A stretch of DNA of 64,000 nt from the NCBI GenBank assembly GCA_022841965.1, contig JALHQM010000003.1:50549-114548 (forward strand), written 5' to 3'. The translations under genes were made by a program, and so were the position numbers. The DNA comes from Hyphomicrobium sp. (GTDB lineage: Bacteria; Pseudomonadota; Alphaproteobacteria; Rhizobiales; Hyphomicrobiaceae). Shown piece by piece: positions 15,586-28,820 of this stretch. The notes beneath the pieces were generated by a model. It worked only from the letters and a program-made list of their open reading frames with translations, did not search any database and was not told the origin of the DNA. Position 1 is the stretch's first letter; each line of letters begins with the position of its first letter.

Positions 15586-16521
15586 TCAGCGTTTGCGTCC
15601 GCGGCCCTCCGAGTGGGTCGCGGCCTGAAGCTCGGCGGAAGTCAACGCGAACACCTCGCCCGAACTGTCCTCAGTCTCGAGCCAAAGGAAGGGTAATTGA
15701 GGGTAGTCCTCCTCGAGGATGTCGAGCCCCGTTCCCACTTCAACGACGAGCACGCCGTCGCGTTCCAGATGCCGCGCCGCCTCGGCCAAAATGCGCCTCA
15801 CGAGATCGAGCCCGTCGACCCCGCCCGCGTGCGCCATCATCGGCTCGGCCCGATACTCCGGCGGAAACGCGGCCACGGCCTCCGCCGAAACATAAGGCGG
15901 ATTGGAAATGATCAAGTCGTACTTGCGCGAGCCAAGCGCAGCAAACAGGTCCGACTGCTGCAGCGTAATCCGGCCTTCCAGACCGTAGTCGGTGACATTG
16001 CGTTGCGCCACCGCCAACGCATCCGGCGATAGATCGACCGCATCGACAATCGCATTGGGATAAGTCAGCGCCGCCAGAATGGCGAGACACCCCGACCCCG
16101 TGCACAAATCGAGCACCGAGGTCACCGTTTCCGGGTCCGGCACCACCGACGCCAATTCCCCATCCAGCAACTCGCCGATATACGACCGTGGCACGATCAC
16201 CCGCTCGTCGACATAAAAATCTCGGCCCCGGATGTATGCGCGGTTCACGAGATACGGCGCCGGCTTGCGAGTCACAACCCGCGCATCGATGAGCCCCGCG
16301 ATGCGGACCCGCTCATCCCCCGTCAGCCGGCAATCGAGCCACGGCTCCAGTTGATCGATTGGAAGATCGAGCGCCGATAGGATCAGAAACGCCGCCTCAT
16401 CGAGCGCCGTCGAGGTCCCGTGTCCGAACACCAGCTTCGCCCCGCGAAAGCGCGACACGCCATAGCGCAACCAGTCGCGCACGGTGACGAGATCGGAGAG
16501 GCGGGTTTCGGTGGCAGTCAT
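15586..16521 (-). CDS. prmB: Ribosomal protein L3 glutamine N5-methyltransferase
   Basis: 311 aa. VLDLCTGSGCLAI SAM motif plus IISNPPYV (NPPY). Overall PrmB-like length and N-terminal domain. Confidence 0.85.
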   Translation of the reverse strand: MTATETRLSDLVTVRDWLRYGVSRFRGAKLVFGHGTSTALDEAAFLILSALDLPIDQLEPWLDCRLTGDERVRIAGLIDARVVTRKPAPYLVNRAYIRGRDFYVDERVIVPRSYIGELLDGELASVVPDPETVTSVLDLCTGSGCLAILAALTYPNAIVDAVDLSPDALAVAQRNVTDYGLEGRITLQQSDLFAALGSRKYDLIISNPPYVSAEAVAAFPPEYRAEPMMAHAGGVDGLDLVRRILAEAARHLERDGVLVVEVGTGLDILEEDYPQLPFLWLETEDSSGEVFALTSAELQAATHSEGRGRKR

Positions 16522-16590: not shown

Positions 16591-17322
16591 CTAACCCTTG
16601 AATTCTTCGATCTTCCCGAAGGCTTCCCGCAATGCCGACGCCCACGCCCCCGACAGCTTCTTGAAATACTCATCATCCTGGTGAATCCGGCTGTAGCGGC
16701 GCACATCAAGGCTGTCACGCTCGTAAAGCAAAAGGTCGATCGGCATCCCGACCGACAAATTCGAACGCAGCGTCGAATCAAACGACAGCAAAAGGAGCTT
16801 GGCCGCCTCTCCCAGCCGCATACCGGGCTGAGCCACGCGATCAAGGATCGGCTTGCCGTACTTGTGTTCGCCGATCTGCAGAAATGGCGCGTCGTCCGAG
16901 GCTTCGATAAAATTTCCCTCGGAATAGATCTGGAATAGCCGGGGTGGCTCCGATCCGATCTGCCCTCCGAGAATAAAGGACGCAAAAAACCCGCTGCGCG
17001 TCGCCTCCAACGCTTCTCCGTCCACCCGTCGCACCTCGCGCACAGCATCTCCCACGATCCGCGCGGCACGATACATCGACGTCGCCGTCATAAGAGTGTG
17101 CTCAACGCCAGAGTCGTCGGCCAACTGCTCGTTCAGAATGCTGACCACGGACTGGCTGATACCCAGATTGCCGGCCGTCAGTAGTACGATCACGCGATCC
17201 CCGGGCCGGCGCCAGTAATGCAACTTCCGGAACTGCGAGATGTTATCGACACCTGCATTCGTGCGCGTATCGGCGGCAAAGACGATGCCGCGGTCAAGTC
17301 GCAGGGCGACGCCGTAAGTCAT
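16591..17322 (-). CDS. Anbu (ancestral beta-subunit) proteasome-like Ntn-hydrolase
   Basis: MTYGVALRLDRGIVFAADTRTNAGVDNIS places the Thr nucleophile right after the initiator Met. It is the last gene of the canonical ATP-grasp/alpha-E/transglutaminase/Anbu operon. Confidence 0.8.
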   Translation of the reverse strand: MTYGVALRLDRGIVFAADTRTNAGVDNISQFRKLHYWRRPGDRVIVLLTAGNLGISQSVVSILNEQLADDSGVEHTLMTATSMYRAARIVGDAVREVRRVDGEALEATRSGFFASFILGGQIGSEPPRLFQIYSEGNFIEASDDAPFLQIGEHKYGKPILDRVAQPGMRLGEAAKLLLLSFDSTLRSNLSVGMPIDLLLYERDSLDVRRYSRIHQDDEYFKKLSGAWASALREAFGKIEEFKG

Positions 17323-17339
17323 ATGAGGGCATGCTCAAA

Positions 17340-18155
17340 CTATTGTTGCTGTTGAGCGCCTTGCTGCTGGACTTCGACAACCACGTCAAGTGTCTCGTTC
17401 TGTCCGCCCCGGCGGTTGCCACGAATGGGCGCGGCAGTCGCCGCATCCAGGCCCGTCGCGAGCCGAATATAGCGCTCCGTCGGGCACATCAGGTTCGCTG
17501 GATCGAAGCCGACCCACCCAAGGCCCTCCACCCACGCCTCCGCCCAAGCATGATGTGCGTCAGACGGTTCCGGTGTACCGGACAGAAAATACCCGTTCAC
17601 GTAGCGCGCAGGTATGCCGAGCACGCGCGCGCCGGCAATGAAGATATGTGCATAATCTTGGCAAACACCGGTGCCATCAGCGAGCGCTTCTGCCGCACTG
17701 GTGTGCGAATGTGTCGTGCCAATCTCATAGGTCACCGCCTCACGGGTCGCATGCATCAAGCGGTGCAATTGATCGAGGGTGCATCCGCCTTTGCATTGTG
17801 TAGTGAGATCGCGGATCCCGTCATTAGGAGCCGTTCGCGGCGTTTCCCGCAAATAGACGCGAAGCGGCGCCGGCTCTGACAATCCCTTCGCAACGCCGAT
17901 CCGATCCCCCGTCTCGACAACGCCACCGGCCTCGATGGTGATGCTGTCGTGCTCGCCTTGGATGGCCGTCAGATGTACCAGATTGCCGAAACCATCATGA
18001 AACTGCGCGGCATTTTCAATGCCCGGCGCAGTAACTTGCCAAGAGATGATCTTTTGCCCATCGAAGGTTGGCGGTGACAGCCGCAAGCTCTCGATAGCGT
18101 AACGCGCCAGCGTGTCGTAGCGATAGGTGGTGGTATGCTTGACGCTGAGCAACAT
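17340..18155 (-). CDS. Transglutaminase-like cysteine peptidase family protein
   Basis: 271 aa with a VCQDYAHIFIAGARVLGIPARYVNGY core (Cys nucleophile), then H...D. Operon position supports the call. Confidence 0.85.
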   Translation of the reverse strand: MLLSVKHTTTYRYDTLARYAIESLRLSPPTFDGQKIISWQVTAPGIENAAQFHDGFGNLVHLTAIQGEHDSITIEAGGVVETGDRIGVAKGLSEPAPLRVYLRETPRTAPNDGIRDLTTQCKGGCTLDQLHRLMHATREAVTYEIGTTHSHTSAAEALADGTGVCQDYAHIFIAGARVLGIPARYVNGYFLSGTPEPSDAHHAWAEAWVEGLGWVGFDPANLMCPTERYIRLATGLDAATAAPIRGNRRGGQNETLDVVVEVQQQGAQQQQ

Positions 18156-18162
18156 GGCGATC

Positions 18163-19110
18163 TCAACCGTTGAAGTGGTATGCGTCTGAAATCTCCTCAG
18201 CCACGCGATTGTTGCGGCCCAGGAAGTCCGTCAAAAATTCATGCAAGCCCGACTGGAAGATAGTGTCGATGTTCCCATTTTCCAGCATCGCCAGCGTTTC
18301 ATGCGCCATGGGTACGCACGTATCGTCCTGATCGTAGAAGGCCTTTAAACCAGCCACCGCTTGATCGATCTCGATGTAACAAGCCCGCAACGACCTGGGC
18401 ATTTCAGCGCTGAGGATCAGGTAGTCCGCGATGTTCCAAGGCTTATAGTGCTGTTTGTAGACCCACCGGTAGCTGCGATGCGCCGACACGGACCTCAAGA
18501 TTGACGCCCATTGCAGGTTATCAACGCTGGAGCCGATCATCTCGTAACTCGGCAGGAGGACAAAATACTTCACATCCAAAATGCGGGCCGTGTTGTCAGC
18601 CCGCTCCAGAAACGTGCCCAGCTGGCTGAAATAGAAAGTGTCGTTGCGCAAAATCGTGTTCAGCAGCGCGCCCCGATAGGTGGCCGACCGCTCCTTGATC
18701 CAGTCCAGAAGCGCAGGCAGCCGGTCGGATGTGATGTCGCGCGGATTGATCGCCTCGAAGTCGATCCACGCGCTATTCAGGCTCTCCCACATCTCGCGCG
18801 TCAACGAGGTGCGCTGCGCCCGCGCGTTTCGCCGCGCAATAGAGATGCATGAGCGGACGCTCGCCGGATTGTCGGCGTCAAAAAGAAGGTAGTTGATCAC
18901 GTCCGACGTCGTCGGCGCGTCGTGCTTGGCCAGATATCCCGTCTCGCACCCAGCACTTTGCAAAGTGGATCGCCACTCCTCGTTGTACCCCTCACCCTCG
19001 CGCGGAAGCAACGCGATGCGATAGCCGACCTCGATCAGCCGCGCCATATTCTCCGCGCGTTCCAGATAGCGCGAGAGCCAGAAAAGATCGTTTGCCGTTC
19101 GGCCGAGCAT
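18163..19110 (-). CDS. Alpha-E domain protein (DUF403)
   Basis: MLGRTANDLFWLSRYLERAENMARL... is the typical alpha-E N-terminus. 315 aa. Confidence 0.8.
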   Translation of the reverse strand: MLGRTANDLFWLSRYLERAENMARLIEVGYRIALLPREGEGYNEEWRSTLQSAGCETGYLAKHDAPTTSDVINYLLFDADNPASVRSCISIARRNARAQRTSLTREMWESLNSAWIDFEAINPRDITSDRLPALLDWIKERSATYRGALLNTILRNDTFYFSQLGTFLERADNTARILDVKYFVLLPSYEMIGSSVDNLQWASILRSVSAHRSYRWVYKQHYKPWNIADYLILSAEMPRSLRACYIEIDQAVAGLKAFYDQDDTCVPMAHETLAMLENGNIDTIFQSGLHEFLTDFLGRNNRVAEEISDAYHFNG

Positions 19111-19156
19111 GAAAGAAACCGGAGTTTGTGTTGGTGGGCAATCGTCTGTTCGAGGC

Positions 19157-20608
19157 TTAGTCTTGCAAGATCCAGGTGTCCTTGGTGCCGCCCCCTTGAC
19201 TCGAGTTCACAACCAACGATCCCTCCCGCAGCGCCACGCGCGTCAGACCGCCGGGAACAAGTCGCACCCGATCGCCGATCAACACAAACGGGCGCAGGTC
19301 GAGATGACGCGGCGCCAAACCTGCATCGACGAGGGTTGGGCACGTGGAGAGGGCGAGCGTGGGTTGGGCGATGTAATTCGACGGTCGCGCTTTCAGTTTC
19401 TCGCGAAACGCGTCGATTTCCTTTTCTGAAGCTGCCGGTCCAACCAGCATTCCATATCCGCCCGAACCGTGAACTTCCTTCACAACCAGCTCTTTGAGAT
19501 TGTCGAGGACGTAGGCGAGTTCGTTGGGGTTGCGGCAGTTTCGCGTCGGCACATTATTCAAGATCGGCGGTGCACCCGTGTAGAATTTCACGATCTCCGG
19601 AATGTAGCTGTAGATCGCCTTGTCGTCCGCGATTCCAGCGCCCGGCGCGTTGACGATCGTCACTCGCCCAGAACGGTAAACGTCAAACAAGCCAGGCACG
19701 CCAAGCATCGACGTCGGCTCGAACACCAGTGGATCGAGAAAATCATCATCGATTCGCCGATACAGGACGTCGACCTGCTTCAGTCCCTGCGTCGTCTTCA
19801 TGTAAAGCGCACCGTCGAGGACCACGAGATCGTGCCCCTCGACGAGTTCGACACCCATCTGATCGGCGAGAAACGAGTGCTCGAAGTAGGCGCTGTTATA
19901 AAGACCGGGTGTGAGAAGCGCGATATTGGGTTCGCGGTCGAGATGCTTGTCCGCCACGCTCTCCAGCGTCTTCAAGAGATTGTCGGGATAGGTCTCGATC
20001 GGAGCGACGCGGTTCTTGGCAAACAAATCCGGAAACATGTGCATCATCGTTTCGCGGTTCTCCAGCATGTAGGAGACCCCCGAAGGCGTGCGCGTGTTGT
20101 CCTCGAGAACGTAGAACTCGTTCGGCCCCGTCCGAACGATGTCGATGCCGATGATGTGCGAGTAGATGCCAAGCGGTGGGTCCACACCGATCATCTCGGG
20201 CACAAAGGCGCTATTCTGGATGACCAGCTCTTCCGGGATTCGCCCCGCCCGCAAGATCTCTTGGCGATGGTAGATGTCGTACATAAAGGCATTGAGCGCC
20301 TTGACCCGCTGTTCAATACCCGCTGCCAGCCGCCGCCACTCGGATGCGGAAATGATGCGCGGCACGATGTCGAAGGGGATCAAGCGCTCGGAGGACTGCC
20401 CATCGCCATAGACGGCAAACGTTATTCCGGTCCGCCGGAACAGCGCTTCCGCTTCGGTTCGCTTCTTTTTCAGATCATCGATTTTCTGGGTACCGAGCCA
20501 CTCAGCCACGGCGCGGTAAGGTTCACGCACCCCCCCACCGAAGCCATTCATTTCGTCGAAGGCTTTCGACACGTCGAGCGATCCCCCAATTCGTTTGTTC
20601 TTAGCCAC
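19157..20608 (-). CDS. Circularly permuted ATP-grasp protein (type 2; DUF404/DUF407)
   Basis: 483 aa. It is the conserved first gene of the Anbu operon, and its sequence is typical of the COG2308 family. Confidence 0.85.
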   Translation of the reverse strand: MAKNKRIGGSLDVSKAFDEMNGFGGGVREPYRAVAEWLGTQKIDDLKKKRTEAEALFRRTGITFAVYGDGQSSERLIPFDIVPRIISASEWRRLAAGIEQRVKALNAFMYDIYHRQEILRAGRIPEELVIQNSAFVPEMIGVDPPLGIYSHIIGIDIVRTGPNEFYVLEDNTRTPSGVSYMLENRETMMHMFPDLFAKNRVAPIETYPDNLLKTLESVADKHLDREPNIALLTPGLYNSAYFEHSFLADQMGVELVEGHDLVVLDGALYMKTTQGLKQVDVLYRRIDDDFLDPLVFEPTSMLGVPGLFDVYRSGRVTIVNAPGAGIADDKAIYSYIPEIVKFYTGAPPILNNVPTRNCRNPNELAYVLDNLKELVVKEVHGSGGYGMLVGPAASEKEIDAFREKLKARPSNYIAQPTLALSTCPTLVDAGLAPRHLDLRPFVLIGDRVRLVPGGLTRVALREGSLVVNSSQGGGTKDTWILQD

Positions 20609-20897
20609 AATAGCGCAAAGACCGGGCCAACTAAAAAACCAAATAAAGTCAGAGAGATAAGGCGGCAGGAACGACGATCTGGCGTCTCAAGAGGCGGCGG
20701 TTGCACAAGTTTCAGTCACGCCATGTCGCACGGAACGGCCTGAGCAGTTTTTAGGCGCCCTCCAATTAACCGCAAGTCGAACGACACGTCACGGTCCACC
20801 TGTTCGACCCGTCTCTGCCGCTATTCATCATGATAGTAAGGTCCTAGGGGTTGATCGACCAGTGGGAGTGGTCAAAGCGAGAGCGGTGACGGGGGAC

Positions 20898-22955
20898 ATG
20901 GCAGAACGCAGCAGCAGCCGAAGTGGAACGTACGCGGAGCGCGCGGGTTCCAGCCCCGAGCGCGTCGGCGTTATCGTCATACACGGTGTTGGCGAAACTG
21001 AAGCTGGCTGGATCAACGACAGCCTGATTCCCCGCCTCGCTTCGGAGCCCGACACCCCGGCATTCGACAATCACAGCGAGGTCTTCAACCTTCCCGATCG
21101 GGGCCGAAACCGTCCAAACCTTCGTTTCAAAGCATTTGTTCGCCGTGGCCGCACCCAGAGCGGAGCGAGCCTTGCGTTAATGGAAATGACCTGGGCCGAT
21201 CTTTCGCGCATCGGCTCTGGCACGCTGGCCAACGCCCTCGTCATGCTGAAACTCTTCTACGAAGCGCCTCAGGTGCTCGGCGAGTGCTTCTTCGACAAGA
21301 CGCGCAATGTCTTTGCCACCGTTCTTTGGAACCTCATCCGGCTCGCCAATTGGATTCTCCGCTGGCCCATCACCGGGCTCAACATCGTTGCGCTCGTTTG
21401 CGCCCTGACGCTTCTGCTCCGGCAAAGAATGCTGGACACACCTGACCTCCAGCCGTTGTTCATCTTTAGCCTGCCGCACGTGATGATGGCGCTCCTCGCC
21501 GGTCTCGCGGTGTTGTCACTCCTGTTCGCGCGATGGCGCGTTGGCCGCGACATCGCCCTCACCGATATAGGCATGTCGACGGCAATGTTCGCCGCCCTAT
21601 CCGCGATGGCCATTTTTATCACGCAACAGGTCATGCCGGATGAACTGTTGATGAACCCGGCATTTTACCTGAAGGCAGCCGGCGTGGTCATCTTCGGGTT
21701 CTGGATGATCTGGAATTACGCCATGCTGGTCGCGATTCTGTCCCTCGCTGCCCTGGCCATCCAGCAATGGTTTGAAAAAGAGAACACCGAGCGCATTCCC
21801 ATCATCCGTCCCGTGGCCGCAGTCAGCCTCAGCGTTGCCCAGGGCGTGATCTACAAAATCGTCATCGCCCTCCTCTGGATCTTTATATTCGTCACCCTTG
21901 ATTTCAATGAACGCACCGCCGACGCCTGCCAGAATGATCCGCTACATGCGTGCAGCTACCTGGCTGACGTTCAGAAAAATCTTGTCGGAATTGTCGTTTT
22001 CAATCTCCTCGTCGTCTCCGCCCTCGCCGTCACATTCTTCGTTGTCGCAATCACCCGTTCGCTTCTGCGCATCCCCGCCCGCCGCACGCGCCGCCTAGCA
22101 TCGTTCTGGATGCCGCGCATGATCGTGAACCCGGTTGCGATCGTCATTCTCCTCCTCGGCACACTTTTCAACCTTGTGATTTTCTATTGGCGGGATGTCA
22201 TTCCGGTTGATTTCTACAAGCAGGTCGACGTACGGCTTCTGCCGTGGCAGGAGGTCGTTAAGGTCATGGTCGGCGGCGGTTCAGCCTTGACCGTCGCATT
22301 CTACGCCTTCCGGGCTTTGCAGCACGCCGCCCGCGGAATCCTTCACATCGGCCGCGATCTCGTCGACCACCAATTCACGCCGCGCTTTACATTCTCGCGC
22401 TACCTGCTTCCGAGACCCGCACATACGGGCGTCGCTCATCCCCGGCGCGCGCGCATTGAGGCTCGTCTCGATGTACTCTTGAAGGAAATCGTCGACGTCG
22501 AACAATTCGATCGCCTCGTCTTCATCGCCCACAGCCAGGGCAGCGTCATCCTGCACGACTACCTGAGCGGAAACCGGGACGACCTCGCGATCCGCAGAGC
22601 GCGCCGCATCGACATCCTGACGCTCGGCTCTCCGCTGTCCCACCTCTATCAATACTACTTCGCGAAATACGAAGCGACGAGCGCCGGTCCCGAAGCGCTG
22701 AACACGCGCCTCACCTCTTGGACCAACATGTGGCGCGTTGACGATCCCATCGGCAATCGGATCGATCTTTTCGACGGCAATTTCGTGCGCAACATTCCGC
22801 TGCGTCCCGGCGGACATGTCGACTACTGGAAAGACCCCGAGGCCATCCGCGCCATCATCGACCTCATTGAGGAACGGCCGATCTCTTATGTGCCAGTTGA
22901 AGCAAACGAGGCAATTGAGCGGCCGCTGGCCGAACCCGTACCAGCCGCCACCTAG
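20898..22955 (+). CDS. Polytopic membrane protein with split alpha/beta-hydrolase (serine esterase/lipase-like) motifs
   Basis: N-terminal VIVIHGVGE, then ~10 hydrophobic helices, then FIAHSQGS (GxSxG-type elbow), DDPIG and GGHVDYW. ATG 20898 is preferred over GTG 20862. Confidence 0.7.
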   Translation: MAERSSSRSGTYAERAGSSPERVGVIVIHGVGETEAGWINDSLIPRLASEPDTPAFDNHSEVFNLPDRGRNRPNLRFKAFVRRGRTQSGASLALMEMTWADLSRIGSGTLANALVMLKLFYEAPQVLGECFFDKTRNVFATVLWNLIRLANWILRWPITGLNIVALVCALTLLLRQRMLDTPDLQPLFIFSLPHVMMALLAGLAVLSLLFARWRVGRDIALTDIGMSTAMFAALSAMAIFITQQVMPDELLMNPAFYLKAAGVVIFGFWMIWNYAMLVAILSLAALAIQQWFEKENTERIPIIRPVAAVSLSVAQGVIYKIVIALLWIFIFVTLDFNERTADACQNDPLHACSYLADVQKNLVGIVVFNLLVVSALAVTFFVVAITRSLLRIPARRTRRLASFWMPRMIVNPVAIVILLLGTLFNLVIFYWRDVIPVDFYKQVDVRLLPWQEVVKVMVGGGSALTVAFYAFRALQHAARGILHIGRDLVDHQFTPRFTFSRYLLPRPAHTGVAHPRRARIEARLDVLLKEIVDVEQFDRLVFIAHSQGSVILHDYLSGNRDDLAIRRARRIDILTLGSPLSHLYQYYFAKYEATSAGPEALNTRLTSWTNMWRVDDPIGNRIDLFDGNFVRNIPLRPGGHVDYWKDPEAIRAIIDLIEERPISYVPVEANEAIERPLAEPVPAAT

Positions 22956-23293
22956 ACGACCGCGCTGCGCGTGCCGGGAATAGCGGGCGAGGGGCCGCAA
23001 AACGTGATCACATCTCCGTCGCTGATGGATGCGCCCAAATCCAAGTTGCCGCCCGTATAGGTGCCGGGATTCATGTCCCGCCCGTTGCACAAAACACGCG
23101 CAATTTGGTCCAACGGTATCTGGTAGATCGCAATAAGATCGCCCACGCTCGTCTCTGCAGGCACGTCAATCGTCTTGGCAAACCGTGGACGGTCGCCGAA
23201 TTTCATCAGGCTCGTCACGAATCGCACCTCGATGGACATCGTTTCGGCGGCGCGGGACGTGGCGGCTGTGATCGAGCGGTCATAAGCGGACAT
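22952..23293 (-). CDS. Small ThiS/MoaD-like (beta-grasp) protein, hypothetical
   Basis: MSIEVRFV...VLCNGRDM...ISDGDVITFCGP resembles the MoaD pattern ...VN...L.DGDEVAFFPPV, but there is no C-terminal GG. The start is uncertain (23293, 23239 or 23413). Confidence 0.4.
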   Translation of the reverse strand: MSAYDRSITAATSRAAETMSIEVRFVTSLMKFGDRPRFAKTIDVPAETSVGDLIAIYQIPLDQIARVLCNGRDMNPGTYTGGNLDLGASISDGDVITFCGPSPAIPGTRSAVV

Positions 23294-23426: not shown

Positions 23427-25103
23427 TTAGAACAACCCCTCGATCTGCCCCTGATCGTTCAGTCGAATGGTGTCTGCTGACGGCACCTTCGGCAGTCCGG
23501 GCATCGTCATGATGTCACCGGTCACCACCACAATAAACTCCGCCCCCGCCGAGAGACGCAGTTCCCGCACCGGCACGATATGTCCCGTTGGAGCACCGCG
23601 CTTGTTCGCGTCCGTCGAGAATGAATACTGCGTCTTGGCCATGCACACCGGCAGATGGCCAAAGCCCATGGCCTCCAATTCCTTGAAGCGCGTCTCAACC
23701 GAACCGTCGCACGAGATATCTGCCGCGCGGTAGATCTCGGTCGCGATCGTCTTGACCTTATCGCGCAACGGCATCTCGTCCGGGTACAACGTCTTGAAGT
23801 TGGCCTTGCCGCTCTCGCACACCCCCACGACATGCTGCGCCAGCGCTTCCGTCCCCTTACCGCCATCTGCCCAATGCGTGCACAGGAACGCCTTTGTTCC
23901 CATGCTCTCCGCCGCCTTCATCACTTCCTGGATTTCAGCTTCGGTATCCGTGATAAACCGATTGACGGCCACCACCGCCGGAACGCCGAACTTGGCGACA
24001 TTTTCGATGTGCCGCTTGAGATTATCGCAGCCCTTGGCGACAGCAGCGACGTTCTCGCCCTTCAAGTCTTCCTTCTTCACGCCGCCGTGCATCTTGAGCG
24101 CCCGCACGGTCGCGACAATCACCGTTGCCGACGGCGCAAGACCCGCCTTGCGGCACTTGATGTCGAAGAACTTTTCAGCGCCAAGATCCGCGCCGAAACC
24201 AGCTTCTGTCACCACGTAGTCGGCCAATTTCAGCGCCGTCTGGGTTGCGAGCACCGAGTTGCAGCCGTGCGCAATGTTGGCAAACGGACCGCCATGGATA
24301 AACACCGGATTGTTCTCCAGCGTCTGTACTAGATTGGGCATCAAGGCGTCCTTGAGCAGCACGGTCATCGCGCCGTCCGCCTTCACGTCCCGAGCCCGCA
24401 CCGGCTTCTTGTCGCGCGTGTAGGCGATGATGATGTTTCCAAGCCGATTTTCGAGATCCTTGAGGTCCTTCGACAGGCACAGAATGGCCATGACTTCGGA
24501 CGCCACCGTAATGTCGAAACCGTCTTCGCGTGGGAAACCATTCGAAACGCCGCCCAGAGAGTTGACGATCGAGCGCAGCGCGCGATCGTTCATGTCAAGC
24601 ACGCGGCGCCATTCCACGCGGCGGCTATCGATGCCCAGGCTATTGCCCCAGTAGATGTGATTGTCGATCAACGCCGAGAGCAGGTTGTGCGCGGATGTGA
24701 TGGCGTGAAAGTCGCCGGTGAAGTGAAGATTGATATCTTCCATCGGCACGACCTGGGCGTAGCCGCCCCCTGCCGCGCCACCCTTCACGCCGAAGCATGG
24801 CCCGAGCGATGGCTCACGCAAAGCCATGATCGCCTTTTTGCCGATCCGGTTCAGACCATCACCAAGGCCCACCGTCGTCGTCGTCTTACCCTCGCCCGCT
24901 GGCGTCGGGTTGATGGCCGTCACGAGGATCAGTTTGCCGTCCGGGCGGTTCTTCAGACTATCGATAAAGTCCGCCGTCACCTTCGCCTTTGTCGGGCCGT
25001 ACTGCAAAAGTGCATCCGATGGGATGCCGACCTTGGCGGCCACCTCCGAAATCGGCTTCATGCTGGCTTCGCGGGCAATCTCAATGTCGGTCTTCACGGT
25101 CAC
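23427..25103 (-). CDS. fhs: Formate-tetrahydrofolate ligase
   Basis: 558 aa. [15 protein letters not shown]-loop and full-length FTHFS similarity. GTG start preceded by GAGGGA. Confidence 0.95.
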
Positions 25104-25341
25104 GGCGTTTCCCTCGAATGGAGTTTCTTATGCGTGGGTGAGTAGTTAACCGCGCGCGGCAGGCAAAGCTAGCAGCGGGAAAGGATGCTTGGCGGTTGTC
25201 CGGGAATATGTCGACTAAAGTCGCTGCCGCCAAGCGCGTTATTGTCGTCCGGGGCCTGGAGCGGTGCGGCTTTGCTTCGCACATGCGAAGGCCCACCGCT
25301 GGGGGCGGCGCGCCTGTCTTGGGGGGGCATGGTTTGCCGGC

Positions 25342-26658
25342 TTATCTCTCGCGGAAAGCCCGGTTGATCTGATCTGACATTGGCTTCATGAGGTAGGAAA
25401 GCGCTGTCCGCTCCTCGGTCGTAATATGGACTTCAACAGGGATGCCCGGCTGTAGCTTGTTGTGACCGAGCTTCGCCCGCTCGGCATCAGACATTGAAAT
25501 TCTGGCGGTGAAATAGATTTCACCCGTGATCTGGTCGCGGGTCAGATCCGGCGAAATGCTCGCCACTTCGCCGGCGATTTGCGGTGTCGTCTGCTGGCTG
25601 AACGCACTGAAGCGTAGGCGCGCCTGCATGCCGACCCGCACCTGATCGATATCCTGCGGCGCGATCTTGGCCTCGACCAGCAGCTTATCGTCTTGCGGAA
25701 CGATGAGCATGATCTGCTCGCCGGGATTGATGATCCCGCCCACTGTGAAAACCGCCAGCTGATGCACGATTCCATCCTGTGGCGCGCGGATGTCAACCCG
25801 GCGCAATTGGTCGACAGCAGCAATCTTACGTTCAACAAATTCCGCGATCTTCGTTTGTGCGTCGCGCAGTTCGTTGACCACCTCGGTCTTCATATCCTGG
25901 TCGAGGCGCGCCATCTGCAACGCAACTTCCGTCCGCCGCCCGCTCGTCTGCGCCAAAGTGGCGCCATACTGGCCAAGCTCGCCCTCAAGTCGCGCCTTCT
26001 CCCGCTTCAGCGCCGCCAGCTTCGTGGTCGTTACCAGCTGCTTGGCCTCTAGACCTGAAAGGCCCGCCAGCTCGTCGGCAATCAGTTTGATTTCGCGCGT
26101 CTTGGCATCAAGTTGCGCGGTGATGCCATCCGCCTCCTGCGCCAGTTGGCCGACACGCTCGTTGAGCTGCGACAGTTGCCCGGCCTTGGACTCCCGGCGC
26201 GAAACGAAAAGGCTTTGCTCGCCGTTCACGATCTCGGCAACATCGGCTTCGAAAGTTCTGCTGGCCAGTATCTCTGGAACAGCAATGCTGTCCGCGCCGT
26301 CCCGCTCCGCCTTGAGCCGCGCTTCGCGCATCAAAAGCTGATCGAGCTGCTTGGAGATTATCTGCTCGTTGGTGCGCGTGAGCGTCTCGTCGAGCCGGAC
26401 GAGGAGATCGCCCACGTTCACCTTTGAGCCATTTTTCACGTGGATCTCACCGACAATGCCGCCGGAGGGATGCTGAACTTTCTTCACGTTCGACTCAACG
26501 ACGACAAGTCCGGCGCCGATCACCGCGCCCGAGATCGTCGTGCTCGCAGCCCAAACACCCAGGCCACCGACGAGAAAAAATAATACTGCCAAGCCCGCTG
26601 CAATGTAACCGCGGACGTTCGCTGCAACCTCGACCTTGATGCGCTGCGGACGGGTCAT
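25342..26658 (-). CDS. HlyD-family type I secretion periplasmic adaptor
   Basis: 438 aa. N-terminal TM helix, long coiled-coil region and a C-terminal barrel. Its start overlaps the ABC gene stop by 4 nt. Confidence 0.9.
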   Translation of the reverse strand: MTRPQRIKVEVAANVRGYIAAGLAVLFFLVGGLGVWAASTTISGAVIGAGLVVVESNVKKVQHPSGGIVGEIHVKNGSKVNVGDLLVRLDETLTRTNEQIISKQLDQLLMREARLKAERDGADSIAVPEILASRTFEADVAEIVNGEQSLFVSRRESKAGQLSQLNERVGQLAQEADGITAQLDAKTREIKLIADELAGLSGLEAKQLVTTTKLAALKREKARLEGELGQYGATLAQTSGRRTEVALQMARLDQDMKTEVVNELRDAQTKIAEFVERKIAAVDQLRRVDIRAPQDGIVHQLAVFTVGGIINPGEQIMLIVPQDDKLLVEAKIAPQDIDQVRVGMQARLRFSAFSQQTTPQIAGEVASISPDLTRDQITGEIYFTARISMSDAERAKLGHNKLQPGIPVEVHITTEERTALSYLMKPMSDQINRAFRER

Positions 26659-28643
26659 TGAACACCTCCCGTATCGTGATCAGTGATCACCTTGGGCACC
26701 AAACTTGGAAAAGGCGTTGTCGAGGTTTCAGATGGCGCGGATGTCATCGGCGACACAGTGGCGACCGGCCGCAGAGACGCGGTCGGTTTGCTGGAGCCAG
26801 TCTTTCGTACAGTCCGAACGACCGGCATTGAGGCGTCTTTCGCGGCCACACCTGCAGCAGCGGGTCCGGCCGGCGCAACCGGTTCGGCTTGGTTCCGTGC
26901 GGCGACAGGCTCAGGAGTGTGCGCTGGTTGCGGCCGGTTGAGCACATCCTTCAGCACGTCGGCCTTAGGTCCGAAAGCCGCGATCTGTCCCCGTGCCATG
27001 GCCAAAACCATGTTGATGGCAGCCAGAGCTGACGGGCGGTGGGCGATGACGATCGCGATCCCGCCGCGTGCGCGAACCGACTGGATCGCTGCGGTCAGCG
27101 CGTTGTCACCGGCCGTATCGAGATTGGAGTTCGGCTCATCGAGCACGACGAGGAATGGATCGCCATAAAGCGCACGCGCCAACGCGATGCGCTGCCGCTG
27201 ACCCGCCGAAAGTCCCACGCCGCCCTCGCCGATCTTGGTCTGATAGCCGTCGGGCAGATTGACGACCATCTCGTGAACTCCGGCCGCTTCCGCTGCCTTC
27301 ACGATGGTCTCACTTGTGGCATCAGGATCGAAACGCGCAATGTTCTCGGCCACGGTCCCGGCAAAGAGTCCGATTTCCTGCGGCAGATATCCGATGTGTT
27401 GGCCGAGTGCCTCAGGCGTCCACTGGTCGAGCGCGGCCCCGTCGAGGCGCACGCTGCCAGCCGGTGTCAACGGTTGCCAAATGCCCATCAGCGCCCGGGC
27501 CAGCGTCGATTTACCCGACGCGCTGGGGCCGATGATGCCCAGGCCGTCGCCGGCGTTGAGCGCAAAATTGATCCCGTGAATAATCGGGTTGCGCTCACCC
27601 GGTGCCGCGATCGCGAGATTGCGAACACTCAGCGTCGCGGCCGGTTTGGGCAACGCCACAAGATCCGCCTCGTCCCCTCCAATATCCATCATATCGAACA
27701 TTTTCGACAGACGCTCATAGCTCTGTCGTGTCGCAACGAACCCGCGCCAATGCGCAATAGCCGTCTCGATGGGCGCCAGAGCGCGCGCCATGATGATCGA
27801 TGCGGCAACGATGGTACCGGGCGATACCTCGCCACGAATGACGAGCCAGGCGCCAAGGCCCAAGATTCCGGACTGCAAAAATAGCCGCATCACTTTCGAA
27901 ATGCTGCCGATGCCGGATGCAGCATCATTTGCTGTCATTTGATCGGTGACATGCTGCGCAGTAAGCTTCTCCCAGCGGGCCAGCATACGGTCGCCAAGTC
28001 CAAGAGCATGGATGAGCTCAGCGTTTCGCCGCGTTTCCTCGCCGAAAGCGTAGCGAGACGACGCGCTGGTGACAGCCGACATCGTCGGCTCTCGCGTCTG
28101 CTGTTCGGTTAAAAGCGTCAACGTCACGAGAATGATCGCGCCGAACAGAGCGAAGACACCGAGGATTGGATGAAACAAAAAGACGACGAGCAGATAGATC
28201 GGCACCCACGGCAGATCAAAAAGCGCTGTCGGGCCAAGCCCGCTGAAGAAGCCGCGGATGGTGTCGAGATCGCGGACCGGCTGTAGACCGTCGCCAGACT
28301 TGCGGTACTTGAGCGGCATCATGCGGATGGCCCGGTACACGCTGGCCCGCACATCGTTGTCCATCCGGACGCCCACGCGGCTCATGACCCGGACGCGAAT
28401 AAAATCAAGAAATCCGTTGGCCATATAAAGCAGCGCCATCAGAACGGTGAGACCGATCAAGGTCGGCACGCTGTTCGACGGCAGCACCCGGTCATAGACC
28501 TGGAGCATGTAGAATGAGCCGGTCAGCGCCAGCAGGTTGATGACACCCGAGAAGAGGCCAACAGCGATCAGTAGGTCTTTCGAGCGGCGAAGCGTGCGCT
28601 GCAGCGGGTTAGAAATGGGGGGACTGGACGAAAGCCGACTCAT
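26655..28643 (-). CDS. Type I secretion system permease/ATPase (PrtD-type, no C39 peptidase domain)
   Basis: Six-TM domain plus an NBD (GPSASGKST Walker A, LSAGQRQRIALARA, LVVLDEPNSNLD). ATG 28643 is preferred; the ORF is open from TTG 28679. It carries a ~95-aa low-complexity tail after the NBD. Confidence 0.9.
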   Translation of the reverse strand: MSRLSSSPPISNPLQRTLRRSKDLLIAVGLFSGVINLLALTGSFYMLQVYDRVLPSNSVPTLIGLTVLMALLYMANGFLDFIRVRVMSRVGVRMDNDVRASVYRAIRMMPLKYRKSGDGLQPVRDLDTIRGFFSGLGPTALFDLPWVPIYLLVVFLFHPILGVFALFGAIILVTLTLLTEQQTREPTMSAVTSASSRYAFGEETRRNAELIHALGLGDRMLARWEKLTAQHVTDQMTANDAASGIGSISKVMRLFLQSGILGLGAWLVIRGEVSPGTIVAASIIMARALAPIETAIAHWRGFVATRQSYERLSKMFDMMDIGGDEADLVALPKPAATLSVRNLAIAAPGERNPIIHGINFALNAGDGLGIIGPSASGKSTLARALMGIWQPLTPAGSVRLDGAALDQWTPEALGQHIGYLPQEIGLFAGTVAENIARFDPDATSETIVKAAEAAGVHEMVVNLPDGYQTKIGEGGVGLSAGQRQRIALARALYGDPFLVVLDEPNSNLDTAGDNALTAAIQSVRARGGIAIVIAHRPSALAAINMVLAMARGQIAAFGPKADVLKDVLNRPQPAHTPEPVAARNQAEPVAPAGPAAAGVAAKDASMPVVRTVRKTGSSKPTASLRPVATVSPMTSAPSETSTTPFPSLVPKVITDHDTGGVQ

Positions 28644-28820
28644 AACGGCACTCACGCTCCGGATCGCGCCGTGGCTCAATCGCGAACCGGAGGGTCCGTG
28701 ACGGTCTTCGACGCATGGTTACCGGAACATTGGTGCCAGAGAACTCTTCACAGATGGCTAACTCTGAAAAGAAAAAGCGTTTCGGGAGAGTCACTTGCCA
28801 ATTTCGCCCTTCATCTTTTG

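Follow-up and report, generated by a model that had tools for sequence, protein, structure and literature searches.

Results

The gene and its surroundings

The window analysed here is a 64,000-nucleotide stretch of DNA from Hyphomicrobium sp., and our subject is the gene at positions 20898-22955 on its forward (+) strand, which we predict to be a complete gene for a split membrane serine hydrolase. In the list of open reading frames (ORFs) and their translations it is one uninterrupted frame encoding 685 amino acids (aa), from an ATG at 20898 to a TAG stop. A GTG at 20862 (+) provides an alternative upstream start; a Shine-Dalgarno-like GGGGGA run precedes the ATG at 20898. The identical 685-aa protein is present in a public protein collection (P0001). 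Around the gene, signals for regulatory RNAs, promoters and terminators did not rise above background.

Upstream lies a complete Anbu operon whose four genes all occupy the reverse (-) strand: a circularly permuted (CP) ATP-grasp gene (19157-20608), an Alpha-E gene (18163-19110), a transglutaminase-like gene (17340-18155) and an Anbu proteasome homologue (16591-17322). A divergent intergenic region of about 290 bp separates this operon from the hydrolase gene. Downstream is a small convergent ORF of 113 aa with a conserved ATG start (22952-23293, -), a candidate ThiS/ubiquitin-like (beta-grasp-like) protein that is a neighbour and not a part of the enzyme; the two stop codons overlap in the 4-nt CTAG at 22952-22955. 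Both arrangements had been noted in a first-pass annotation made by a model from the letters of the window, and both are borne out, as are the four motifs that it quoted from the translation: VGVIVIHGVGE (residues 23-33), FIAHSQGS (542-549), DDPIG (615-619) and GGHVDYW (638-644).

A large family without annotation

A word-indexed search returned 50 homologue clusters at 90% identity, none with an alpha/beta-hydrolase Pfam record; every homologue named by any source is a 'hypothetical protein', and a cluster look-up of distant members gave the same result. An exhaustive search extended the family to 856 representatives at 50% identity (E ≤ 1e-3; 473 at E ≤ 1e-10), most of them 620-860 aa long and matching the query from end to end. 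The full-length protein had no match in Pfam-A or NCBIfam at E ≤ 10 bar one noise hit, none among PDB sequences, and no hit at E ≤ 1 among the PADLOC-DB hidden Markov models (HMMs) of defence proteins; the full family profile found only noise (E > 1) in the PDB. Literature searches for a split or transmembrane-inserted alpha/beta-hydrolase, and for the AHSQG motif, recovered no description of the family. The first-pass annotation had allowed that the family might prove to be well characterised; on the evidence of Pfam, NCBIfam, PADLOC and PDB sequences it is not. Domain scans overlook the catalytic domain because it is split.

Conservation marks both termini of the protein. Of the 154 homologues of at least 580 aa, 134 keep an N-terminal HGxG together with an xHS[QML]G that lies 451-790 residues further downstream. 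In a family alignment of 133 sequences, from which all conservation percentages below are taken, H29, G30, G32, H545, S546, Q547 and G548 are invariant. These residues belong to the predicted oxyanion-hole motif H29-G30-V31-G32 (20982-20993, +) and to the predicted nucleophile elbow A544-H-S546-Q-G548 (22527-22541, +). The candidate catalytic acid, D615 or D616 (22740-22745, +), is conserved at 96% and 98% respectively, and H640, in the putative catalytic histidine loop G638-G639-H640 (22809-22817, +), at 99%, followed by Y643 (98%) and W644 (96%). Two further groups stand out: E96 (99%), W99 (100%) and D101 (99%), within the segment E96-M-T-W99-A-D101-L-S103 (21183-21206, +), and R517 (98%) and R523 (100%), within the arginine cluster P515-R-R517-A-R519-I-E-A-R523 (inside 22419-22883, +). 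Also conserved at 90% or more are G37, R82, W272, R387, P406, R407, D487, H491, R519, D554 and T575, together with S578, P579, Y584, Y587, W608, N610 and R613. Judged from the alignment, conservation of the candidate catalytic motifs is well beyond chance, and the joint retention of an oxyanion motif with Ser, Asp and His candidates is what would be expected if the enzyme is active and depends on both termini.

Evidence for a single catalytic domain

A critical issue is whether the two ends form one domain. We built an AlphaFold2 model of the full-length protein with a 31-sequence alignment; its mean predicted local distance difference test score (pLDDT) is 80 and its predicted template-modelling score (pTM) 0.80, and the local pLDDT is 74-92 across residues 21-100 and, for the most part, 80-93 across the C-terminal domain. 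The putative N-half, residues 18-108 (20949-21221, +), comprises strand 22-29, the HG loop, helix 38-49, a hairpin (55-66 and 76-85) and strand 91-97, corresponding to beta3, HGxG, alphaA, beta-hairpin and beta4; the E96-S103 segment would then mark the end of beta4 and the entry to the insertion. The next element that is not purely helical is the putative C-half, residues 508-662 (22419-22883, +): helix 515-535, strand 539-545, Ser546, helix 547-557 and strand 570-576, then strand 605-613 with Asp615/616 directly after it, strand 630-635, His640 and helix 647-658, corresponding to alphaB, beta5, Ser, alphaC, beta6, beta7, Asp, beta8, His and alphaF.

As modelled, the order reads beta3-oxyanion-alphaA-(hairpin)-beta4 and then, after a break between beta4 and alphaB, alphaB-beta5-nucleophile-alphaC-beta6-beta7-acid-beta8-His-alphaF. 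Three features that define the fold are in place: strand 539-545 turns directly into helix 547-557 at the elbow; nucleophile, acid and histidine keep their order, each after a successive strand (539-545, 605-613, 630-635); and the HG oxyanion loop follows strand 22-29, although it lies 516 residues upstream of Ser546. A putative fourth feature, one central sheet of order 4-3-5-6-7-8 that unites the strands of both halves, is supported indirectly by the pTM of 0.80, by the collinear homology of both halves to the contiguous relative P0230 and by the match of the P0230 model to whole lipases (see below).

The first-pass annotation had proposed that a predicted model be compared with known structures. 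When the full model was compared with the PDB by Foldseek, the top match was Bacillus subtilis lipase A (LipA), accompanied by other minimal lipases (probability 1.0, TMt 0.50-0.54, E ~6e-3). The alignments span 141-170 columns and cover the C-half only – LipA from alphaB onward – because the gap of 385 residues cannot be bridged; the N-half therefore lies outside them. To join the halves we assembled a spliced domain alignment, A2, in which residues 18-106 are connected to 508-662 in 21 diverse members, and searched its profile against a large protein database. By hhalign the spliced family profile matched LipA residues 58-104 (E 8e-6; alphaB-beta5-Ser-alphaC-beta6), and against both the PDB and LipA only the stretch between the nucleophile elbow and beta6 aligned. 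An N-half profile alone matched LipA weakly (probability 24%). By itself the C-half of the model has four strands and no oxyanion loop: it lacks exactly beta3, HG, alphaA and beta4, the elements that the N-piece supplies.

Four independent lines – family conservation, the contiguous relatives described below, the Foldseek matches and the AlphaFold2 scores – together support the earlier suggestion of a single catalytic domain interrupted by a polytopic one. Residues ~18-108 and ~508-662 very probably constitute one minimal lipase-type alpha/beta-hydrolase domain.

Relatives with a short insertion or none

The search with the spliced profile retrieved fragments of the same family and, in addition, proteins in which both halves lie close together. 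The clearest of these is P0230, a 224-aa protein without a hydrophobic segment that is collinear with residues 1-198 of the spliced query (BLASTP E 9e-12) and has in common with the family the motifs HGVG, E..D, AHSQGS, GSPL, W.N.Y..D and a His. Its AlphaFold2 model, made with the family alignment, has pLDDT 71, pTM 0.67 and the order beta-alpha-beta-alpha-beta-alpha-beta-alpha-beta; it aligns over its whole length (207-238 columns, TM-score 0.43-0.52) with Archaeoglobus fulgidus lipase, Legionella RavL, BlEst2 and others. P0230 alone passes the gathering score of the Pfam PGAP1 family, with 30.4 against 24.3 bits.

The remaining contiguous and short-insert relatives are weaker, detected at E 3e-8 to 4e-4 only. 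P0238 (406 aa) and P0239 (376 aa) contain no hydrophobic segments and have an HG-HSQG spacing of about 230 residues; they are matched on the C-half, and at the N terminus by the HG motif only. P0236, P0240 and P0241 carry just one or two hydrophobic helices at the beta4-alphaB site. These distant relatives (P0236, P0238-P0241) share the HG, ExWWAD, HSQGS, GSPL and W.N.[WY]D..DP motifs, and the ExWWAD of the E96-S103 region recurs in the short-insert proteins P0240 and P0241. Probabilities for the N-half profile were 94.9% for P0240 (85 columns, reaching ExWWAD), 93.1% for P0230, 90.6% for P0236 and 87.5% for P0241, with 7.3% for P0238, where only the HG strand was matched; for the C-half, profile A2 gave 98.6% for P0230, 97.0% for P0238 and 79.8% for P0241.

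Because the halves match contiguous and short-insert relatives, each piece is homologous to one end of a single lipase-type domain. Comparison of these sequences marks the beta4-alphaB loop as a site of recurrent hydrophobic insertion in this group, and the succession – no insertion, a hydrophobic hairpin, an eight-helix bundle – suggests that a membrane insertion grew step by step at this position.

The gene for P0230 (L065 2631-3305), the one close relative that is contiguous throughout, sits on a 5-kb phage-like contig between a Peptidase_M15 gene and genes for HNH/AP2 and a deoxynucleoside monophosphate kinase. The Peptidase_M15 gene directly before it is probably an endolysin gene, and P0230 may be the lipase of a phage lysis cassette, analogous in position to mycobacteriophage LysB.

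The membrane insertion

The AlphaFold2 model consists of helices only from residue 109 to 492, a span of about 385 residues between the soluble halves. Kyte-Doolittle and family hydropathy resolve eight transmembrane (TM) helices: 156-178, 192-214, 222-244, 258-290, 306-333, 358-385, 410-432 and 452-474. Averaged over the family, hydropathy is 1.35-1.89 for these helices, compared with 0.84 and 0.98 for the two helices at 109-131 and 138-155. The latter pair, residues 109-155 (21222-21362, +), includes a conserved LFYEAPQVLG and the R155-W-P157 entry to TM1 and is read as interfacial, its second helix running continuous with TM1 in the model (helices 109-131 and 138-179). The predicted bundle, residues 156-474, spans 21363-22319 (+), with TM1-TM4 at 21363-21431, 21471-21539, 21561-21629 and 21669-21767 and TM5-TM8 at 21813-21896, 21969-22052, 22125-22193 and 22251-22319. 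The first-pass count of about ten hydrophobic helices at roughly 150-500 was thus close for the helical region, which consists of eight TM and two interfacial helices and not of ten TM helices.

Charge is distributed unevenly among the loops. The family mean number of lysines plus arginines (K+R) is 1.0 for L1-2, 1.3 for L2-3 (a loop of only 7 residues), 1.2 for L3-4, 2.9 for L4-5, 2.5 for L5-6, 6.0 for L6-7 and 1.6 for L7-8; acidic residues outnumber basic ones in L1-2, L3-4, L5-6 and L7-8. The protein has no signal peptide and its soluble ends are basic. This pattern, in which L2-3, L4-5 and L6-7 are the K+R-rich loops, indicates an N-in/C-in topology with a predicted cytoplasmic catalytic domain. 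A single domain formed by both ends requires the TM helices to be even in number, and, since the chain is predicted to enter and leave the membrane on the cytoplasmic side, the reassembled domain would lie on the cytoplasmic face.

The predicted periplasmic TM5-TM6 loop (21897-21968, +) contains Cys344 and Cys352, present in 72 and 70 of the 133 sequences respectively, most of the others being gapped at these columns; their co-conservation marks a putative periplasmic disulfide. At the end of TM8 is a predicted cytoplasmic exit motif, H483-I-G-R-D487-L-V-D490-H491-Q492 (22344-22373, +), in which H491 is conserved at 91%, D487 at 90%, D490 at 87% and H483 and R486 at 82% each; relatives carry a similar motif (VINDPLAYL, LDVDNYLR). 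Within the insertion, the conserved polar residues gather at the predicted cytoplasmic boundary – R155/P157 where TM1 begins, R387 where TM6 ends, P406/R407 where TM7 begins and H483-Q492 where TM8 ends – and adjoin E96/W99/D101 and R517/R519/R523 of the soluble halves. Among solved structures Foldseek offered the bundle only low-probability matches (< 0.4) to G-protein-coupled receptors and major facilitator superfamily proteins, and a profile search of the PDB gave nothing; the bundle has no Pfam match and no internal 4+4 repeat (hhalign probability 0.3%).

Comparison with known hydrolases

The closest mechanistic precedent that we can propose for a lipase domain on a TM bundle is PGAP1/Bst1, the glycosylphosphatidylinositol inositol deacylase (PF07819), which is likewise polytopic, with a small lipase-type domain and a Ser-Asp-His triad. 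In PGAP1 one TM helix precedes the lipase domain and nine follow it (PMC10761859). The first-pass statement that in such enzymes the TM segments follow the domain holds, then, for nine of them, and one precedes (PMC10761859). In the cryo-EM structure the lipase domain is docked onto the TM domain, and the two share a cavity for lipid that opens laterally (PMC10761859); by analogy only, we adopt such an arrangement as the working model for the window protein. The differences are considerable: the PGAP1 lipase domain is contiguous, faces the lumen and is accompanied by a jelly-roll, whereas that of the window protein is split, predicted to be cytoplasmic and has no jelly-roll. An uninterrupted extracytoplasmic lipase domain flanked by TM helices, the PGAP1 arrangement, is therefore not what we find here. 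Against PF07819 (gathering score 24.3 bits) the full-length window protein gave no hit at E ≤ 10 and only one of the 21 spliced domains registered (E 0.06); PGAP1 was absent from the top 50 Foldseek hits.

LipA (PDB 1I6W/1ISP) is the best structural match of the C-half. Both proteins have an Ala-His-Ser-x-Gly elbow (A-H-S-M-G in LipA), the oxyanion strand PVVMVHGIGG of LipA parallels VGVIVIHGVGE, and a TLGG/TLGS strand follows alphaC in each. The A-x-S-x-G signature of a small lidless core, about 180 aa in LipA-type enzymes, thus recurs as AHSQG in a spliced core of about 245 aa. LipA, however, is secreted, soluble, lidless and contiguous over 181 aa, whereas the window protein has about 400 residues inserted between beta4 and alphaB and a hairpin between alphaA and beta4; sequence identity is ~15-18%. 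The window protein has no signal peptide, eight predicted TM helices and no hit to Pfam Lipase_2, and so departs from the secreted, soluble and contiguous LipA type.

The commonest Pfam matches of the spliced domain are to families of putative serine esterases and of phospholipase effectors of type VI secretion, namely DUF676 (PF05057), Tle3 (PF24322) and DUF900 (PF05990), each found in 7-9 of the 21 members and all below the curated cutoffs; Tle3, with 9 of the 21 and a best E of 0.0014, stays below its 27-bit cutoff. These families share the HSQG(T/S)-type elbow, also seen in PDB 8BOZ, and the alphaB-beta5-alphaC segment. Their members are annotated as lipid-directed hydrolases and are soluble or secreted with contiguous domains, unlike the window protein, which by HMM membership belongs to none of PGAP1, Lipase_2, Tle3 and DUF676. 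Neither near the window gene nor in related loci did we find genes of a type VI secretion system (T6SS) or immunity genes. A role as a defence system or T6SS effector was rejected on three grounds: no PADLOC hits, a Tle3 score below cutoff and no T6SS genes nearby.

Pseudomonas aeruginosa PlaF (PA2949) is an inner-membrane alpha/beta-hydrolase with a single N-terminal TM anchor and an uninterrupted domain. PlaF-type phospholipases A are thought to remodel the cell's own glycerophospholipids, a role that we also propose here. No sequence relationship between PlaF and the window protein was detected.

Distribution

A scan of GTDB species genomes, limited to two conserved peptide patterns, recovered 54 loci. 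Most are metagenome-assembled genomes (MAGs) of Hyphomicrobium or other Hyphomicrobiaceae; a few belong to Rhodobacterales, Devosia, Chromatiales, Ectothiorhodospiraceae, Chlorobiaceae, Acidobacteria and Bacteroidota. The window is nearest to Hyphomicrobium, with 87% identity to L014 and L020. Across the Hyphomicrobium loci the proteins of the Anbu operon, the methyltransferase and the TRAP transporter proteins (tripartite ATP-independent periplasmic) that flank it are 55-97% identical and the hydrolase falls to 35-38%: it evolves much faster than its neighbours. Two MAGs carry divergent pairs of paralogues (L042/L052 in JANLYX01, L047/L048 in JANNSR01; 25-31% identity to the query), so some Hyphomicrobium genomes hold more than one copy. 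A MIP/aquaporin channel gene lies a few kb from two distant, unrelated members (L009 327-1016; L066 11418-12083), which may be coincidence.

Discussion

Proposed function of the split hydrolase

In alpha/beta-hydrolases strands beta3-beta8 are parallel, with the oxyanion loop, nucleophile, acid and histidine at their C-terminal edge. The loop after beta4 emerges at this edge, two strands from the nucleophile, so an insertion there would overlie the active site – the position of the lid or cap in soluble relatives – and the bundle may thus be regarded as a membrane-embedded cap.

Our data lead us to propose that the gene product is an integral inner-membrane serine hydrolase whose catalytic unit, of the PGAP1/LipA/DUF676/Tle3 kind, would be assembled from two pieces. 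The TM bundle, acting as a cap within the membrane, would bind an amphiphilic acyl-ester of the inner leaflet, most likely an anionic glycerophospholipid or lysolipid, and would offer the scissile ester to Ser546 via a lateral cavity whose lining is made up of conserved interface residues (E96/W99/D101, R155/P157, R387, P406/R407, H483-Q492 and R517/R519/R523). The ester could be hydrolysed, or its acyl group transferred by way of an acyl-Ser546 intermediate. A ring of conserved arginines points to an anionic head group, as in a phospholipid or lysophospholipid, or a phosphopantetheine thioester. The weak Pfam similarities of the spliced domains and of P0230 – Tle3, DUF676, DUF900, LCAT and PGAP1 – are all to lipid-active families. 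The first-pass annotation had offered a membrane-lipid or envelope-polymer esterase or acyltransferase: a predicted cytoplasmic catalytic domain argues against an envelope polymer and for a membrane-lipid or acyl-thioester substrate. To an inner-membrane acyl-ester hydrolase or transacylase acting on an anionic lipid of the inner leaflet, with the bundle as its cap, we give roughly even credence.

Several points weigh against this proposal. The structural matches are weak: the best Foldseek E that the full model gave is 6e-3, and whole lipases match it with TM-scores of only about 0.5. The packing of the two halves is deduced from homology, no contact or cavity having been seen directly. The cleanest contiguous relative, P0230, is a singleton from one short phage-like contig, and a P0230-seeded search of a 5.8-billion-protein index returned no homologue besides P0230 itself. 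The topology is predicted only from hydropathy and the positive-inside rule. We found no operon partner, no characterised homologue and no published report that would narrow the choice of substrate, and one subfamily, described below, points to acyl-CoA chemistry rather than a simple phospholipase. The data show an intact gene, a conserved family, its motifs, the number of helices and the homology of each half; we infer the packing of the halves, the cytoplasmic orientation, the bundle's role as a cap and the lipid nature of the substrate alike.

Alternative explanations

The alternative that survives best, although we consider it unlikely, is a membrane acyltransferase or thioesterase dependent on acyl-coenzyme A (acyl-CoA) or acyl-acyl carrier protein (acyl-ACP), in which a cytoplasmic Ser546 would take an acyl group from a soluble acyl-thioester and pass it to a lipid or another acceptor held by the TM bundle, or in which long-chain acyl-CoA would be hydrolysed at the membrane. 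Acyl-CoA and acyl-ACP occur in the cytoplasm, the side on which the catalytic domain is predicted to lie, and the conserved R517, R519 and R523 at the entrance could bind phosphates. Moreover, in 10 of the 10 members tested of one sizeable subfamily an insert of about 85 residues between alphaA and the hairpin matches the small domain of CoA-transferase family III (CoA_transf_3; 33-47 bits against a gathering score of 23.3, profile positions ~225-315 of 366), which may hint at acyl-CoA chemistry in this hydrolase family. But the window protein itself has no such insert; the insert is a fragment of the CoA-transferase whose CoA-binding role is putative; and the closest matches in sequence and fold are lipases and phospholipases, not alpha/beta-fold acyltransferases or thioesterases. 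The subfamily comprises P0049 (L009 1257-3587), P0048, P0062, P0064, P0068-P0070, P0081, P0084 and P0089.

An esterase or deacylase of reverse topology, facing the periplasm and acting on lipoprotein, lipopolysaccharide or lipid A, peptidoglycan or exopolysaccharide, is less probable still. Many membrane-anchored bacterial esterases do act outside the cytoplasm and the lipase domain of PGAP1 is extracytoplasmic (PMC10761859), and the topology proposed here was predicted by simple rules only. Such an arrangement would, however, oblige a 155-residue N-terminal segment (~18 K+R) to cross the membrane without a signal peptide; the most basic loop, L6-7 (6.0 K+R), falls on the same side as both catalytic halves and the Cys pair on the opposite one; and there are no envelope-biosynthesis genes among the conserved neighbours.

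A link to the Anbu operon is an obvious thought given the position of the gene: the hydrolase might serve, for example, as a peptidase or deacylase on a product or target of a putative peptide-tagging system encoded by the Anbu, ATP-grasp and transglutaminase genes. The divergent intergenic region of ~290 bp is shared, and by tblastn the operon adjoins the hydrolase in all Hyphomicrobium-type loci whose upstream sequence is long enough to show it, an adjacency that persists where the hydrolase is only 35-38% identical and the ATP-grasp protein 78-83%. Beyond these loci the association disappears. No gene of the operon occurs within ±8 kb in loci L033-L064, except in L041 and L044, which are syntenic close relatives, or in the independent members L003, L005, L009, L066 and L067; clustering of flanking ORFs from related loci revealed no conserved neighbour outside the Hyphomicrobium synteny block; and in L002 two other genes separate the hydrolase from the operon. 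Co-occurrence with the operon thus does not extend across lineages. Since the operon is absent from distant loci and no conserved neighbour is found elsewhere, we read the adjacency as inherited synteny: it is confined to Hyphomicrobium and carries no functional link, and the hydrolase gene otherwise behaves like one that stands alone. Functional coupling seems to us very improbable.

Scarcely credible is an artefact or non-enzyme – a frameshift fusion, or an HG segment unrelated to the C-terminal domain, which would leave an incomplete or pseudo-hydrolase on a membrane protein – for, while the contact of the halves has not been directly visualised and every Pfam alpha/beta-hydrolase model misses the full-length protein, the same continuous ORF recurs across independent assemblies in more than 100 diverse homologues, HG is invariant and the triad is conserved with it, the C-half alone has four strands and no oxyanion loop, and the N-half has an independent homology of its own to the N-terminal ends of relatives bearing the same C-half. 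The fusion of two genes by frameshift or assembly error, in particular, is ruled out by that recurrence and by the retention of the split architecture throughout the family (134 of 154 homologues).

Significance

The preferred reading, a membrane-integral lipid hydrolase assembled from two pieces, combines familiar catalytic machinery with an architecture that is undescribed and a TM fold that has no solved relative. The alpha/beta-hydrolase fold is among the most thoroughly catalogued of enzyme folds, and the known domain insertions are soluble lids and caps. The first-pass annotation had called the present arrangement unusual for lipases and esterases, rightly so: in Pfam, NCBIfam, the PDB and the searchable literature we found no account of a catalytic domain that a whole polytopic bundle interrupts. 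Such an architecture would surprise specialists of the fold; the family is large and unannotated. If confirmed, it would represent a new way to build an interfacial lipid enzyme, with a membrane domain as the cap, and would extend bacterial membrane-lipid metabolism by a serine hydrolase that has so far no annotation. The family, at least 856 clusters at 50% identity and concentrated in Hyphomicrobiaceae, merits a family model of its own.

The most interesting lead is the series at one loop, from no insertion through a hairpin to eight TM helices, which, if true, would provide natural intermediates for the study of how soluble enzymes become membrane-integral. We can take this idea further, tentatively, and consider the sequel rather doubtful: that these proteins form a new class of membrane-integral alpha/beta-hydrolases, of which the window protein would be the first example, and in which the beta4-alphaB cap position was taken over stepwise by membrane elements, the bilayer-embedded bundle becoming the substrate site that selects, and possibly flips, a specific inner-membrane lipid for acyl-ester cleavage or transfer at the cytoplasmic face.

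Neighbouring genes and minor observations

The convergent ORF had been called beta-grasp-like in the first-pass annotation, which is plausible and unproven, all ThiS and Ub-Mut7C scores lying below cutoff: two orthologues reach 21.3 and 19.2 bits against the Pfam ThiS cutoff of 22.5, and the window ORF has only a weak match to Ub-Mut7C (14.9 bits, cutoff 23, E 0.024). Its start (MSAYDRS/MTAYDRS) is conserved, although the longest ORF extends to 23413, and by tblastn it is present in 13 of 30 Anbu-linked Hyphomicrobium-type loci. Located downstream of the formate-tetrahydrofolate ligase gene, it encodes the core IEVRF..SL.KF...VP..TTVGDL...NGRD...G.Y.GG...DGDVI.F.GP and ends in GTRSAVV (GYGAPVV in orthologues), and hence lacks a C-terminal GG. 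A beta-grasp-like, ubiquitin-like protein about 2.3 kb from an operon of Anbu, ATP-grasp and transglutaminase genes may merit separate study. In the Hyphomicrobium-type MAG locus L002 (5688-7791) the two genes between operon and hydrolase encode 219 and 470 aa and have no Pfam hit; the beta-grasp-like ORF is retained there with the identical 4-nt stop overlap.

Beyond the Anbu operon (16591-20608, -) are a PrmA/MTS-type methyltransferase gene (15586-16521) and then the TRAP transporter genes. On the other side, 23427-28679 (-) holds genes for formate-tetrahydrofolate ligase (23427-25103), an HlyD/AprE-type membrane fusion protein (25342-26658) and an ABC exporter (26655-28679). The latter two constitute a type I secretion pair, to which the syntenic loci L001 and L007 add a gene for an HlyC toxin-activating acyltransferase; together these genes indicate a locus for the export of an RTX-type (repeats-in-toxin) toxin. 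Further along the window, G+C content rises to 0.679 at 32001-34000, compared with ~0.61 for the window, a segment that overlaps an ORF of 819 aa (32290-34749, +).

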